Source: a virus. Taken from it: 41,225 nt of DNA. How positions within the stretch are numbered: position 1 is the stretch's first letter; every line of letters begins with the position of its first letter. The notes under the pieces were generated by a model. That model saw only the letters and a list, made by a program, of their open reading frames with translations. It searched no databases and was not told the origin of the DNA. The stretch is from positions 1 to 41,225 of the IMG/VR virus record IMGVR_UViG_3300048838_000134. One strand, written 5' to 3'. Shown piece by piece: positions 12,985 through 41,225 of the stretch. Position numbers and translations under genes: made by a program.

Positions 12985-13045
12985 TCAATTATGCTTTCTT
13001 GTGGTAAAGCGTTGTTTTACTTCATGACAAAAATACGCCCCAGTG

Positions 13046-13077
13046 CTTGCAAATGCCAATACAAATACCTATCTTTG
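13046..13077 (+). promoter_or_regulatory. Bacteroides-type promoter for the plus-strand cassette (-33 cTTG, 20-nt spacer, -7 TATCTTTG)
   Basis: TATCTTTG at 13070..13077 fits TAnnTTTG. CTTG lies at 13046..13049. The ATG at 13098 is about 20 nt downstream. Confidence 0.5.
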
Positions 13078-13097
13078 TCCAAGTGTTGGACAAAACG

Positions 13098-13466
13098 ATG
13101 AATGACAAGGACGAAGAAACTGATTTACAGGAAGTTTACAAGGGAGTAGCAATCTACGCCGACAACTGCCTGGAGAATATCAAAGATGCCCGCAGAGCAT
13201 TACGCCACGCCACAACACGCACAGACAGAAAGATTTACCGCAATGTTATCCGGCACAACCGGAACGAACTGCGTGACGCACGCAACAAAATGAAGATACT
13301 CAAAGCACGTTCAGGTACGACGTGGTGGCTGTGGTTAACCGCACTGCTCCTGAGTATTGTGCTGATGATTGTCATTCCTGGTGCGCCTCTTTATGTCGTG
13401 TTTGCGCCGGTGTGGATAATTGCTTTGATAGGAGTTATCGGAATCTTATTCTATGTAAAGCGATGA
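13098..13466 (+). CDS. Membrane protein (cytoplasmic basic helical N-domain plus two C-terminal TM helices), moron gene 1
   Basis: Start set at the first ATG after the promoter (MNDKDEETD...). TM helices are WWLWLTALLLSIVLMIVIPG and LYVVFAPVWIIALIGVIGILFYV. One of only two genes on the plus strand. Confidence 0.55.
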   Translation: MNDKDEETDLQEVYKGVAIYADNCLENIKDARRALRHATTRTDRKIYRNVIRHNRNELRDARNKMKILKARSGTTWWLWLTALLLSIVLMIVIPGAPLYVVFAPVWIIALIGVIGILFYVKR

Positions 13467-13708
13467 TTTACACGCCAGAGGAATATGCAAGAACATTTAC
13501 TTTTGGCGGTATCTTTTTATCCGCCCGCAGCATTAAGCGGCGGTGTAGGATAGGGCAACTTCCTAAAGGTCATTTAGCCCGTAAGATAGGAGGAAAGACA
13601 GGAGGGTGGATTATTGAGGTAGAGATGTTCTCGGAGAATATCCGTAGGCAGTACAATATTCAACTCACGCTAAAGAAGGAGCAGTCTAAAGCTCCCCAGC
13701 CTTCTTAA
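13463..13708 (+). CDS. Small HTH DNA-binding protein (excisionase/MerR-like HTH_17 type), moron gene 2
   Basis: Start at an internal Met that forms an ATGA overlap with gene 1. FLSARSIKRRCRIGQLPKGHLARKIGGKTGGWII resembles excisionase-family HTH proteins. The 3' end overlaps the convergent tape-measure gene by 23 nt. Confidence 0.5.
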   Translation: MIYTPEEYARTFTFGGIFLSARSIKRRCRIGQLPKGHLARKIGGKTGGWIIEVEMFSENIRRQYNIQLTLKKEQSKAPQPS

Positions 13709-23134: not shown

Positions 23135-23166
23135 CAAATATAGCACCGCTTTCCCGATTTTCCAAA
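23135..23166 (-). promoter_or_regulatory. Bacteroides-type promoter (-33 TTTG, 20-nt spacer, -7 TATATTTG) facing the packaging/late operon
   Basis: The minus strand reads TTTG-gaaaatcgggaaagcggtgc-TATATTTG. This is an exact fit to the TTTG/TAnnTTTG consensus and spacing. Confidence 0.55.
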
Positions 23167-23238: not shown

Positions 23239-23499
23239 TTACTTACAGATGCCCGAGCTCACGTATTCACTCTTTTCATATTTCGTGCAGCGGTCAACCC
23301 TTGTGTAAGTTACTGCAACGTATTTCCCGGTGTAGCAGTAGTACGTGTAGGTTATTGACCTGTATCCGTCGGTGCTGTCGTAGTATGACACATCATCCGG
23401 TGTGCCATACGGTGCTTTTGGATCAGGTTCATCGCAGGTGATTGGGCTTTCACACGAAAGGCAGAAAGCAAGCAAGAGAAGCGGAAGAATCTTTTTCAT
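23239..23499 (-). CDS. Small lipoprotein
   Basis: MKKILPLLLLAFCLSC lipobox-type signal, followed by a Tyr/Cys-rich mature domain. Confidence 0.6.
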   Translation of the reverse strand: MKKILPLLLLAFCLSCESPITCDEPDPKAPYGTPDDVSYYDSTDGYRSITYTYYCYTGKYVAVTYTRVDRCTKYEKSEYVSSGICK

Positions 23500-26486: not shown

Positions 26487-27118
26487 TTGCTTATGTTTTG
26501 TTTCCAGTATTCAAAAAGTAAGTCTAATCCTACAAAGTGTACGTTTAGGTCTGTTCTAAAATAAGTGTTACCGTATGGGTAATATTCAGTATTTAGCGAT
26601 ATCCACTCCACAAACTCCCTATCAAAGAACTGACGCTTATTAAAATTGAGATGAGCAAAGTCCTTATGATATTTTATTGCTGCCTCGTCTCTAACATAGG
26701 CGGCTTCTTCAGGAGTGTCATATGTACCTAACCTAATCCTCTTTTTATCCACATTAATAGTTGCAAAATACCTTCCATTTCTATGTTTATATACTCCCTT
26801 AAATCCAGTCTTTGAGGCATTAAATCTATTCATCTGATTTTGCCCTCTCGTACATATACGCAAGTTATTTCTCTGATTGTTTAAGCCATTATGATCTATA
26901 TGGTCAACAAGTTCATTGGGATAGGGATTTAATATAATTCTATGCATAGTCATTGATCTCCACTCCCCTGATGACAATTGGGCATTGCAGATAGCATAAA
27001 TATACTGCTTATCCCCACGTTTTTTAACTTTAGCAAACCATTTACGTTGATTAAGAAGCTCAAAATCTTCATCATCGACTAAAGCAACAAATCCCTTTGT
27101 TAAATTAATTGTTTTCAT
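26483..27118 (-). CDS. Free-standing HNH homing endonuclease with AP2 DNA-binding domain (copy A)
   Basis: Start moved to MKTINLTKGF. HRIIL...VDHIDHNGLNNQRNNLRICTRGQNQMN is an HNH_3 motif. FKGVYKHRNGRYFATI..KKRIRLGTYDTPEEAAYVRDEAAIKYH is an AP2 motif. Confidence 0.8.
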   Translation of the reverse strand: MKTINLTKGFVALVDDEDFELLNQRKWFAKVKKRGDKQYIYAICNAQLSSGEWRSMTMHRIILNPYPNELVDHIDHNGLNNQRNNLRICTRGQNQMNRFNASKTGFKGVYKHRNGRYFATINVDKKRIRLGTYDTPEEAAYVRDEAAIKYHKDFAHLNFNKRQFFDREFVEWISLNTEYYPYGNTYFRTDLNVHFVGLDLLFEYWKQNISK

Positions 27119-36037: not shown

Positions 36038-36142
36038 GTTCTGCTGTTTTTGTTATTGCAAATATTGTAAATATTATAATACAACGCAAATATTTTGATG
36101 CTTATTTTATGCCATGCTGTTATTTAGACGGCATATAAATAA

Positions 36143-38524: not shown

Positions 38525-39016
38525 TTATATTGCGATTAATAATTCATTCGGGAAATTTACATAGGCAAATTCGCCAAACAATTCACAGGCTTTTTTATCG
38601 TAAGCCCTTGCCGCCTCGACAGGAGTGGCAAACGTCCCGGCGTAATGTCGTTTTTGATTGAGTTTAGCGACGGCCAAATAAACAATGCCTGACTTGGTTT
38701 TTCGTGCGAACACTCCCTTATACTGAGATGTGGGATATTTGATTCTGTTGTACTGGTTCTGTTTATGTGAGCACATCCTGAGGTTATGCCGCCGATTATC
38801 CAGCCCGTTGTGATTGATATGATCAATGGAGCAATCCGGCATACCCATGATTACACGGTGCATTCCAACTGACCGGCGTATGCCATTTACATAAAGATTG
38901 GTTCTAGCATAGGTTGTGTGCGGCGCCCTTACTGTAAACCATTTATACTTACTAATAATGGGATAGTCCGCATCATCAATAATTGCCTCTAATCCCTGAG
39001 TTATCTTTATTTTCAT
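38525..39016 (-). CDS. Free-standing HNH homing endonuclease with AP2 DNA-binding domain (copy B)
   Basis: HRVIMG...IDHINHNGLDNRRHNLRMCSHKQNQYN is the HNH motif. YKGVFARKTKSGIVYLAV...KRHYAGTFATPVEAARAYDKKACELFG is the AP2 motif. Paralogous to 26483..27118. Confidence 0.8.
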   Translation of the reverse strand: MKIKITQGLEAIIDDADYPIISKYKWFTVRAPHTTYARTNLYVNGIRRSVGMHRVIMGMPDCSIDHINHNGLDNRRHNLRMCSHKQNQYNRIKYPTSQYKGVFARKTKSGIVYLAVAKLNQKRHYAGTFATPVEAARAYDKKACELFGEFAYVNFPNELLIAI

Positions 39017-39041
39017 ACTGCGTTATTGTTTTATTACAACG

Positions 39042-39049
39042 CAAACATA
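39042..39049 (-). promoter_or_regulatory. -7 box TATGTTTG upstream of HNH-AP2 copy B
   Basis: Fits TAnnTTTG on the minus strand, 25 nt upstream of the ATG at 39016. No clear -33 element. Confidence 0.35.
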
Positions 39050-39182
39050 ATACAATTATTGTAATAATTATAATGAATCTGTAATTTAGAAACAGTCTAA
39101 ATAGTAGTCAGAGATTGTACACGATGTATGATACGCTATGTGTGATTGTTACGGGTGTGCTTGGATATTTTCGTACAACAAT

Positions 39183-39224
39183 AGTAAAACATCAACAAGA
39201 AACCCCGTGCAAATCGGGGTCTCT
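39183..39224 (-). terminator. Intrinsic-terminator-like hairpin 2 of the leader (AGAGACCCCG-7 nt loop-CGGGGUUUCU, then U-rich tail)
   Basis: 10-bp stem (one G-U pair on the minus-strand RNA) at 39198..39224, followed by UGUUGAUGUUUU. Confidence 0.5.
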
Positions 39225-39329
39225 TTAGCGCAAAAATGGAACGTGAGGGAATGTTGTAAAAATGGTGTTTACCTTCAGGGGTAAAGGTACAATAATTCCC
39301 GAAAATTATGCACAAAAATCGTGAAAAAT

Positions 39330-39373
39330 TATATAATAAAAGAACCCCGATGTTGTATAGGGTCACCGGGGTC
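39330..39373 (-). terminator. Intrinsic-terminator-like hairpin 1 of the leader (GACCCCG...CGGGGUUC, then UUUUAUUAU)
   Basis: GC-rich 7-bp stem with one bulge at 39342..39373, followed by a U-run on the minus-strand RNA. The stem sequence is related to that of hairpin 2. Confidence 0.45.
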
Positions 39374-39456
39374 TACGGAACAAAGAGTCATGTGATGATT
39401 CGCAATGGTAAGTTAGCAATACATAGGCAAATGTTTTTAATTGTTAGCTCAATAAG
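39330..39456 (-). ncRNA. Candidate small RNA / transcribed leader bounded by a promoter and terminator hairpin 1
   Basis: It lies between the canonical promoter at 39463..39494 and the first terminator. No credible ORF is present. The GCUAAC motif occurs twice. Confidence 0.3.
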
Positions 39457-39462
39457 CAGTAA

Positions 39463-39494
39463 CAAATATACAACGCTGCTTTCATATTTGCAAA
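39463..39494 (-). promoter_or_regulatory. Canonical Bacteroides-type promoter (-33 TTTG, 20-nt spacer, -7 TATATTTG)
   Basis: On the minus strand, TTTG lies at 39491..39494 and TATATTTG at 39463..39470. Both the motifs and the spacing fit the consensus exactly. Confidence 0.55.
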
Positions 39495-39511
39495 TTATTC
39501 TTTCAAACAAA

Positions 39512-39554
39512 GGGACGGTACCGGAAAAAACTGCCAAAAACCGGTAACCGTCCC
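39512..39554 (-). terminator. Intrinsic terminator downstream of the metallophosphoesterase gene
   Basis: Minus-strand RNA reads GGGACGGUUACCGG-16 nt loop-CCGGUACCGUCCC (13-bp stem with one bulge), followed by UUUGUUUG. It begins 28 nt after the stop at 39583. Confidence 0.6.
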
Positions 39555-39582
39555 TGTCCCGTGAGGGATGACGAATGATTGA

Positions 39583-40635
39583 CTATAACGTGAAATTCGT
39601 TCTGTTAAATTCTCCGTGCTTCGGATTGACAAGCCACGCCGACTGCCCCGGCTTCGAGTACCTTCCGGCCTGATGGTCGTAAGCATCGGTACCGGAGAGG
39701 GAGGCGCCGCAGGAATACAGTGGCGAATCAAACGGCGTATGGAAGTGACCGAACACGTACTTATGAAATCCTATCTCTCTCGCCCGTTCAATCTCCTGCA
39801 TAATGATCTGCAGGCGTGCCTGCGCCTCCTTGCCTACTTTGCGCTCAATCCCGTACCAGGGGACACCCATCCAGCCCTTGACGTTGTGGCCGTGAGAAAT
39901 GAGATACAGCCTGCCGTTCACCTCGACAACCTTTTCAAGCATCGGGTAGATGTTCATCTCTACATTGGAGAGTGAGGCGATGTACGCCTGCAGCATGGAG
40001 CCTACGAGATAGTTTAATGAGTTTTGCCCTGCCTCCTTTGCCTGCGGTTTCTTCGTCAGGCGGGAGTGATTGTCCTCGGTGATGAAATGAACCTTCACTT
40101 TATTGAAGTGAGGGGCAAAGATTTGTATCTGCTGAGCAATGTCTTTTGCTGTTTCAACAACCTGTACGGGAGAGGGGTAGGCGTTGGTTATCCGCAGCTC
40201 GTCATGTATGTCCCCGGAGATAAGGTCACCGGTGAGTAATACCGTTGCCTCCTCAATCCTGTATGCCTGTTTCATGAAGTTTGCCCACTTGACAGCTTTC
40301 TCCGCAAAGGCAATGGAACGTTCATGCGAGATGTCAGGGTTGAACGCATTGAACCCCTCGATCTCGTTCGGCTCCTGCACAGCCCCTTTGTGGGTGTCGG
40401 TGATATGGAACACCGGCTCAATCAAAACGCCACTCCTGACGGCCTCCTTTTGCGTCACAGGCTCATATTCCTTCACGGGTGTTATTGCCTCCCGCACTTC
40501 TTCAAAGAATACCTCGAGCTTGCCGTGTTCACGGCGGTAGCCCTGGAGGATGGTACGCAGTTCTGTTATCTGCCTGCGCAGCTCAACAGATTTCTCGCTG
40601 TGTTCAGCTTTTAATTGCTCCTCGGTGATTGACAT
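39583..40635 (-). CDS. Calcineurin-like metallophosphoesterase with N-terminal coiled-coil
   Basis: Motifs HITDTHKG (DxH), LLTGDLISGD (GDxxD), ITEDNH (GNH-like), ISHGHN and VFGHFHTP (GHxH). Confidence 0.75.
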   Translation of the reverse strand: MSITEEQLKAEHSEKSVELRRQITELRTILQGYRREHGKLEVFFEEVREAITPVKEYEPVTQKEAVRSGVLIEPVFHITDTHKGAVQEPNEIEGFNAFNPDISHERSIAFAEKAVKWANFMKQAYRIEEATVLLTGDLISGDIHDELRITNAYPSPVQVVETAKDIAQQIQIFAPHFNKVKVHFITEDNHSRLTKKPQAKEAGQNSLNYLVGSMLQAYIASLSNVEMNIYPMLEKVVEVNGRLYLISHGHNVKGWMGVPWYGIERKVGKEAQARLQIIMQEIERAREIGFHKYVFGHFHTPFDSPLYSCGASLSGTDAYDHQAGRYSKPGQSAWLVNPKHGEFNRTNFTL

Positions 40636-41073: not shown

Positions 41074-41163
41074 TTATATGGTGAATAGTATGTACACCTC
41101 TCCGGCCAGCACCACGAGCAGTGCTGCCTCAATGAGCTTTGAGATAATGGTAAATGCTTTCAT
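41074..41163 (-). CDS. Possible 29-aa hydrophobic peptide spanning the circular junction (also read from 47 back across position 1)
   Basis: Hand-translated as MKAFTIISKLIEAALLVVLAGEVYILFTI. It starts 2 nt after the TGA of ORF 50..340 and ends 12 nt before the next gene. Confidence 0.25.
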   Translation of the reverse strand: MKAFTIISKLIEAALLVVLAGEVYILFTI

Positions 41164-41225
41164 GGTCAGAAGTTTGGTAATGGTTCAGATACTCCAAGAA
41201 TCAACTCTGCTGCGAGCCACAACGC
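41117..41225. repeat. Terminal direct repeat, copy 2 (identical to 1..109)
   Basis: Same comparison as copy 1. The repeat runs exactly to the end of the window. Confidence 0.95.

Follow-up and report, generated by a model that had tools for sequence, protein, structure and literature searches.

The 41,225-nucleotide (nt) genome of an uncultured phage (IMG/VR record IMGVR_UViG_3300048838_000134; the whole stretch was analysed and is called the window below) contains a 566-bp intergenic spacer (39017-39582) that, on the minus strand, separates an exonuclease gene from an operon for an HNH-AP2 homing-endonuclease-like protein, an SNF2 helicase, and a methylase. On balance, and with moderate confidence, this spacer is interpreted as containing a moron-like, self-contained small-RNA unit that lies between two older terminators and resembles in its anatomy a trans-acting, base-pairing small RNA (sRNA). 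The promoter-to-terminator unit probably gives rise to a non-coding RNA of approximately 120 nt. Alignments and blastn comparisons with related loci divide the spacer into six blocks, and it is read as a patchwork of separate modules and not as a single regulatory device. A previous annotation of the same DNA (the original prediction) had placed five elements here, namely a terminator (Term1), a consensus promoter, two terminator hairpins (H2 and H3), and a second -7 box, and had taken them for a discrete phage sRNA, a leader under processive antitermination, or an attenuator. All five elements can be read from the minus strand where they had been placed. By the comparisons given below, the interpretation is partly supported: the anatomy is right and the sRNA is favoured, and the regulatory-leader alternatives are not supported.

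Related loci (112 in number, 466 kb in total) were gathered with the exonuclease and the helicase as anchors and were compared with the window by alignment and blastn; the exonuclease family comprised 692 homologues at E ≤ 1e-30. The loci are designated by L numbers, and L004, L005/L006, L007, L012, and L102/L103 encode exonucleases 85-95% identical to that of the window. L004 (95% exonuclease identity) possesses neither the promoter nor the cargo (RNA body, H2, and the spacer behind it) and keeps Term1, H3, and the operon promoter; its H3 module is located 33 nt past Term1 and is followed by the operon promoter. Promoter and cargo are also absent from L102/L103, and no promoter follows Term1 in L007, though this contig ends approximately 25 nt further on. 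In L005 the same promoter and leader are followed by a transfer RNA (tRNA) gene, tRNA-Met, and approximately 200 nt of unassigned sequence, and L006 also carries tRNA-Met. As reconstructed from these loci, the ancestral state is that of L004, with the exonuclease gene, Term1, a short spacer, H3, and then the operon's own promoter and operator. The cargo of the window is flanked by the promoter and the H2 terminator and is situated between sequences that are adjacent in L004, as is found for morons. Because the promoter and leader precede tRNA-Met in L005/L006 and the block is absent from L004 and L102/L103, the pattern of a conserved operon leader is not fitted, and the discrete phage sRNA is the alternative preferred here.

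The promoter (39463-39494, minus strand) matches the sigma-ABfr consensus exactly, with a -33 TTTG at 39491-39494, a 20-nt spacer, and a -7 box TATATTTG at 39463-39470. The Bacteroides consensus consists of TAnnTTTG at -7 and TTTG at -33 (PMC2483708, PMC7366714). The host, which has not been isolated, is almost certainly a Bacteroidota bacterium, because distant relatives of the exonuclease (24-30% identity) occur mostly in Phocaeicola, Parabacteroides, and Bacteroides phages and three of its four closest genome matches are Bacteroidetes or Bacteroidales metagenome-assembled genomes (MAGs); this makes the sigma-ABfr consensus the proper promoter model, and the TTTG/TAnnTTTG promoter type named earlier fits these phages and MAGs. 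The 20-nt distance agrees with the spacing of approximately 19-21 nt between -7 and -33 that Bayley et al. reportedly described in 2000. Matches of a generic scan to sigma-70 promoters were disregarded since the host phylum has a different consensus. In the alignment with L005, none of the 10 consensus positions and 8 of the 22 other positions (approximately 36%) had changed, and the chance of all eight changes falling outside the consensus is approximately 0.03 by a hand calculation; in L005 the consensus is kept before a gene. The shared leader TTACTGCTTATTGA (39449-39462, minus strand), in which transcription is expected to start, aligns with a 13-nt leader, TTGTGTTCTTTGA, in L005, and the block composed of the promoter and this 14-nt leader (39449-39494) was found in L005/L006 only. 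The tRNA-Met(CAT) gene of L005 starts 16 nt past the -7 box, and the promoter-leader homology runs directly into it, stopping 2 nt ahead of the mature tRNA. Full matches to TTTG-N18-22-TAnnTTTG number two in the 41 kb, both on the coding strand and in intergenic DNA, a count that by itself is weak (0.75 expected; 16 of 100 shuffles reach 2). The other one, a perfect TTTG-N20-TATATTTG at 23135-23166 (minus strand) flanked by the gene for a small lipoprotein (23239-23499) on one side and by a 67-aa open reading frame (ORF) with the terminase genes on the other, is probably the promoter of the packaging/structural module.

Downstream of the leader, the block 39260-39448 is specific to the window and consists of an AU-rich, weakly structured RNA body (39374-39448, minus strand; approximately 83 nt when counted from the predicted start), H2 with its tail, and a 64-nt spacer. 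H2 (39324-39373, minus strand), the intrinsic terminator of the small unit, was seen in the window only and is composed of a stem-loop (39343-39373; 10-bp stem, 11-nt loop) and a U-rich tail (39324-39342) in which CUUUUAUUAUAUAAUUUUU stands directly past the stem; its folding energy is -15.5 kcal/mol (z = -2.2). Term1, H2, and H3 all have GC-rich stems of 10-14 bp and U-rich tails, the loops of Term1 and H2 being longer than typical, and H2 is predicted to be a good intrinsic terminator. The spacer behind it (39260-39323, minus strand) contains a small hairpin, TACCTT-N8-AAGGTA (39270-39289), found by folding, and has no homologue. Searches for cargo homologues matched a single piece of the whole spacer region, the H3 module, in L004 and L005. 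Within the phage's own genome, repeats of the cargo were limited to chance 11-14-mers. No Rfam family scored above threshold in the region (E ≤ 10) or in the whole window (gathering score), the best match being IS128 on the wrong strand (19.7 bits, cut-off 80). A tRNA, a transfer-messenger RNA (tmRNA), or a remnant of either was rejected as the content of the block: the window has no tRNA genes, ARAGORN gave nothing at its default and 80% thresholds and nonsensical intron-containing calls only at 70%, and Rfam gave no tRNA or tmRNA at E ≤ 10.

In the proposed mechanism, host RNA polymerase with sigma-ABfr would start near 39456 and stop at H2 near 39337, yielding an RNA of approximately 115-125 nt in which a long 5′ portion, AU-rich and with little structure, precedes the terminator hairpin, as in trans-acting base-pairing sRNAs. 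H3 would act as a back-up terminator that keeps transcription from upstream out of the operator and promoter of the HNH-AP2/helicase/methylase operon. As a base-pairing regulator, the RNA would probably target host transcripts. The sequence elements, their presence or absence in relatives, the exchange of the cargo, and its lack of a coding, tRNA, or Rfam identity were observed directly; we infer transcription, termination, RNA length, and function of the cassette from the sequence.

Several observations weigh against the small-RNA reading. Folding of the RNA body does not stand out from that of shuffled sequence (z = -1.5), and its centroid is unpaired, the terminator alone being stable. No homologue of the cargo was found by blastn in the 112 related loci, in GenBank phages and the INPHARED phage set (blastn, and megablast of 11 kb), or in exact-pattern scans of IMG/VR (H2, two body segments, the H3 module, and the Term1 loop), and because the cargo is unique, neither covariation nor conservation can be demonstrated for it. 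The phage's own translation-initiation regions gave no significant complementarity, since 94 of 100 shuffles did as well as the best duplex. Textbook terminators have smaller loops than the 11 nt of H2, the conservation of the promoter comes from one independent relative (L005), and the transcription start at approximately 39455-39457 is itself only predicted, from promoter geometry.

Another reading, unlikely on the whole and still to be taken seriously, is that of an inert scar: the promoter and a terminator would be what survives of an earlier cassette for a tRNA or another RNA, the body would consist of spacer DNA that was left over or rearranged, and the transcript would have no function. 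In favour of this, the cargo occurs in this genome alone and has little structure, the content of the highly mosaic slot changes in nearly every relative, no target was found in the phage, and an 11-nt string, ATTAAAAACAT, which the RNA body has in common with the spacer of L004/L005, may point to a reshuffling of local DNA. Decay of this kind, however, does not account well for consensus promoter positions that are all intact despite approximately 36% change at neighbouring positions, for an H2 that is intact and strong with a proper U-tract, or for a break in homology located exactly at the border between leader and RNA gene, as cassette exchange predicts. A variation on the cassette itself, considered improbable, is that the promoter and leader serve as a "socket" for swapped RNA genes and that the orphan RNA would represent a new class of effector acting on host translation or defence, not an mRNA-targeting sRNA.

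In a further reading, transcription from 39463-39494 would run through a leader into the operon, and processive antitermination, or an attenuator controlled by a ligand or an RNA, would allow it to pass H2 and H3. This idea draws on the succession of a strong promoter, two terminator-like hairpins that share a stem, and an operon, and read-through control is conceivable in a genome transcribed in one direction. The idea is nevertheless doubtful in view of the relatives. L004 and L102/L103 do without the promoter, body, and H2 of the lambda nut/put-like leader that the original prediction considered, L004 at the same time having H3, the operon -7 box, and the operator. In L005, the same promoter and leader precede a tRNA gene and the H3 hairpin is weak, and the operon possesses a conserved promoter of its own. 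No antiterminator of the N/Q type was recognised among 40 proteins searched with PHROG and Pfam, where novel factors among the small ORFs without a family are possible. Against the attenuator version, the 83-nt body holds no GGGG or CGGGG-type complement to the 5′ arm of H2 (AGACCCCGG) and no stable aptamer-like fold, and no riboswitch, leader, or put element was matched in Rfam. Nor do H2 and H3 form one device: H3 is part of a conserved module of greater age, and H2 is part of cargo seen in the window only. Given their different loops (11 nt as folded and 7 nt, respectively), the two hairpins are unlikely to be bound by one and the same protein. Of the likeness of the two hairpins, the shared stem of 8-9 nt stands, whereas the flanks align no better than shuffled sequence. 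Hairpins of the form GACCCCG-N-CGGGGT are restricted to H2 and H3 in the 41 kb (0.04 expected, for a pattern picked after the data had been viewed). An origin of H2 and the body by tandem duplication from the H3 module was rejected, 182 of 1000 shuffles reaching the local alignment score, and convergence, local gene conversion, or chance are possible sources of the shared stem. Least probable is that the product is a micro-protein. A 20-codon ORF (ATG at 39390, MTLCSVDPGDPIQHRGSFII, stop within the H2 tail) can be read within the predicted transcript, but the stem of the terminator falls inside this frame, which lacks homologues and is too short for a test. The two longest ORFs of the spacer (76 aa on the minus strand and 79 aa on the plus strand) have no Pfam match and cross module boundaries that are absent in relatives, and none of the five spacer ORFs looked up is on record as a gene product, which is a fair test only for the two with ATG starts. 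The stand-alone small-RNA cassette is the reading retained here.

Across the loci compared, the junction downstream of the exonuclease gene is a hot spot for small-RNA genes, because tRNA-Met stands behind the same promoter and leader in L005/L006 and tRNA-Met or a permuted tmRNA occurs there in distant relatives. Genes for tRNA-Met(CAT) downstream of the exonuclease gene were located in L005 (3755-3828), L006 (1702-1775), L002 (5754-5828), L033/L034 (2571-2642 in L033), L039 (3010-3083), L075 (4279-4350), and, further downstream, L008 (4174-4246). A permuted two-piece tmRNA (Rfam RF04321, gathering score 47) lies just past the exonuclease gene in L030 (1761-2114; 67 bits) and L042 (4141-4954; 56.6 bits), and also in L043; the tag predicted by ARAGORN in L030 is GREISMPQFKAAA*. 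With these matches, the slot gathers translation-related RNA genes. A TAnnTTTG box stands immediately upstream of the tRNA-Met of L039 and the tmRNA of L030, and most other RNA genes of the slot have none. The fillings are otherwise unrelated to each other and differ in nearly every relative. Two-piece tmRNAs of phages are known mainly from marine phages (PMC9004378), and the relatives of this Bacteroidota phage that carry the permuted tmRNA are environmental metagenome contigs. Beside the tRNA genes, large ORF-free stretches without Rfam assignment were observed in L005 (3829-4040), L002 (5051-5750), L033 (2188-2570 and 2643-3002), and L064 (4057-5853); the fold of L005 3829-3970 has z = -2.2. 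Such stretches may represent further new RNAs.

On the exonuclease side, the last gene before the spacer (39583-40635, minus strand) encodes a 350-aa metallophosphoesterase-type exonuclease (PHROG 284 "exonuclease", E = 3e-32). Right after its stop codon, folding and alignment gave a small 3-bp hairpin, CCC-UCAC-GGG (39558-39567, minus strand), the helix of which is kept in five of six relatives, with GNRA tetraloops (GCAA, GAAA) in relatives. Term1 (39504-39554, minus strand), the intrinsic terminator of the exonuclease transcription unit, was delimited by folding and by alignment of relatives and is formed by arms at 39541-39554 and 39512-39524 (13-14-bp stem), a 16-nt loop, and the U-tract TTTGTTTG at 39504-39511; together with the preceding small hairpin, it has a folding energy of -30.5 kcal/mol (z = -3.4). 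The block comprising both hairpins (39498-39582) is common to L004, L005/L006, L007, L012, and L102/L103. Among six independent sequences, both partners have changed in four pairs of the main helix, pairing is kept in 93.9% of cells, and it exceeds that of shuffled controls and all slid controls. Because of these compensatory changes and a pairing well above controls, Term1 is, as far as comparison of sequences can tell, a real, selected structure. The covariation check recommended with the original prediction gave compensatory pairs for Term1, and H2 and the cargo offered no homologues to compare. The Term1 loop with its closing bases, GGTTTTTGGCAGTTTTTT (39525-39542, minus strand), is identical in six relatives while the stem arms drift; such an invariant loop is unexpected in a terminator and may be a protein-binding site. 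A sigma-54 reading of the loop was rejected by inspection, the spacing of GG-N10-GC being a misfit, and scans of IMG/VR and of one metagenome with the loop pattern turned up no copy of the cargo. The motif CATTCGTCA is present once before Term1 in the window (39569-39577), where it is not enriched, and three times around Term1 in L102/L103 (5058-5170 in L102), the first two copies being seen in L007 (3931-4028) before the contig ends. It may be a regulator site in these relatives.

On the operon side, the conserved H3 module, TTACAACATTCCC..TCCATTTTTGCGCTAAAG with the hairpin and its U-rich tail (39186-39259, minus strand; 39199-39259 as a block of the alignment), is 84-90% identical in L004 and L005. 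The H3 hairpin (39197-39225; 11-bp stem, 7-nt loop, U-rich tail) is the sole minus-strand hairpin of the spacer listed by the terminator scan, and its folding energy indicates a strong hairpin in the window (-19.2 kcal/mol) and in L004 (-18.1 kcal/mol) and a weak one in L005 (-9.6 kcal/mol). Its U-rich tail is provided by a 56-nt insertion directly 3′ of the hairpin (39143-39198, minus strand), which is specific to the window and absent from L004 and L005 by alignment and blastn. The promoter/operator region of the HNH-AP2/SNF2 helicase/methylase operon (39003-39142, minus strand; 74-80% identical in L004 and L005) includes the second -7 box, TATGTTTG (39042-39049), 25 nt before the HNH-AP2 start codon. 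Upstream of this box is a palindrome, TTTAGA-N5-TCTAAA (39085-39101), of which the arms are kept and the spacer varies in L004 and L005; with one-mismatch copies at 36123-36139 and 26544-26560, the genome has three such sites (0.14 expected), and the palindrome is likely to be an operator for a phage regulator.

The first gene after the spacer, HNH-AP2 (38525-39016, minus strand), matches PHROG 99 (E = 2e-31); its protein has Pfam HNH_3 and AP2 matches, both under the curated Pfam cut-offs, and forms a singleton cluster. The gene is missing from L004 and L005, in which the SNF2 helicase gene is directly next, L004 retaining the first few codons. Its relatives in IMG/VR do not exceed 41% identity, and no part of the spacer accompanies them. 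Searched from the helicase side, close relatives (L014-L017, L104-L109) have a primase or DnaB gene directly upstream and no comparable spacer. Three HNH endonuclease genes are present in the 41-kb genome (38525-39016, 26483-27241, and 30077-30508). Mobile homing-endonuclease genes may add to the mosaicism of the spacer region, with which the presence or absence of HNH-AP2 is consistent.

The window is a complete phage genome, circular or terminally redundant, by its terminal repeat: an exact direct repeat of 109 nt at 1-109 and 41117-41225 leaves 41,116 bp of unique sequence. The minus strand holds nearly all ORFs, giving a single direction of transcription. Proteins matching PHROG families include a portal, a prohead protease, a large terminase, and a tape-measure-like protein, and the replication/modification block encodes the metallophosphoesterase-type exonuclease, HNH-AP2, the SNF2 helicase, an N6/N4 methylase, a ParB-like protein, a replication initiator, and a DnaC-like loader. 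No match at the DNA level was found among GenBank phages (blastn, and megablast with 11 kb), and no integrase or lysogeny module was found in the protein scans made of the phage. The statement that the spacer is the only large non-coding stretch proved essentially right. Minus-strand ORFs are scarce in only one further stretch (12985-13685), which seems to be coding on the plus strand: its AT skew flips and it has plus-strand ORFs at 13047-13466 and 13322-13708, which have no PHROG match and which suggest a small opposite-strand gene pair within the structural module.

To our knowledge, almost no transcription signals or non-coding RNAs have been mapped in Bacteroidota phages, notably in environmental and digester lineages like this one. 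Here, one junction was found in three states, being empty in one relative, occupied by a tRNA cassette in another, and occupied by an orphan-RNA cassette in the window, and the three-way comparison locates a predicted host-type promoter, three terminators, and an operator-like palindrome. It also defines a hot spot where tRNA-Met, permuted tmRNA, and unassigned RNAs gather at one place. If expressed, the orphan RNA would by our own assessment be among the first candidate sRNAs of a Bacteroidota phage, no literature search having been aimed at this point; if it is not expressed, the antitermination leader of the original prediction would still be a chance juxtaposition of modules. The more reusable outcome is the annotated set of promoter, terminators, and operator for an uncultured Bacteroidota phage lineage, together with the RNA-gene slot in its relatives.

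Morons, reportedly introduced by Juhala et al. in 2000, are said to be independent promoter-gene-terminator units between genes that are adjacent in related phages. They resemble the cassette described here in having their own promoter and terminator and in being present or absent at the same junction among close relatives. Phage morons have been reviewed (PMC3594210), and in lambdoid prophages sRNA genes occupy a moron site, as with the anti-sRNAs AsxR and AgvB in prophages of enterohaemorrhagic Escherichia coli (EHEC) (PMC4104026). Like the EHEC prophage anti-sRNAs, the cassette carries a small non-coding RNA instead of a protein gene as cargo, its expression being predicted. Unlike these morons, it is found in Bacteroidota with another promoter type, the same promoter and leader recur in front of other RNA cargo, it has no sequence relation to the moron sRNAs described, and the protein scans made gave no integrase or lysogeny module. 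On the sequence comparisons, the cassette is probably a so far singleton case of an RNA moron, or phage sRNA cassette.

Lambda nut and HK022 put sites, attenuators, and riboswitches share with the window the order of a promoter and then terminator hairpins ahead of an operon. In contrast to these systems, the window has neither boxA/boxB nor a put-like conserved structure, and no homologue of an antiterminator protein was found in the proteins scanned; its "leader" is non-conserved and dispensable in close relatives and offers no alternative pairing, and the operon has a conserved promoter of its own. The two-piece tmRNA of the marine phage Melnitz (PMC9004378) is like the slot content of L030 and L042, whereas the window has no tmRNA or fragment of one. 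The tRNA-Met(CAT) cassette of L005/L006 corresponds to that of the window in that its position is identical, its promoter and leader are homologous, and it ends in a terminator; the window cargo differs in giving no cloverleaf, even when the ARAGORN thresholds were relaxed, and no score for a tRNA in Rfam. In Bacteroides, high-confidence intergenic sRNAs are recognised by their own start site and a Rho-independent terminator, and GibS (Ryan et al. 2020) has a single-stranded 5′ region followed by a terminator (PMC7366714). The cassette is phage-encoded and without sequence similarity to GibS-type sRNAs, but it has in common with them a sigma-ABfr promoter, a single-stranded 5′ region, a Rho-independent terminator, and a length of approximately 100-150 nt, and as a predicted unit it displays the features that make up the in-silico part of the Bacteroides "high-confidence sRNA" criteria.

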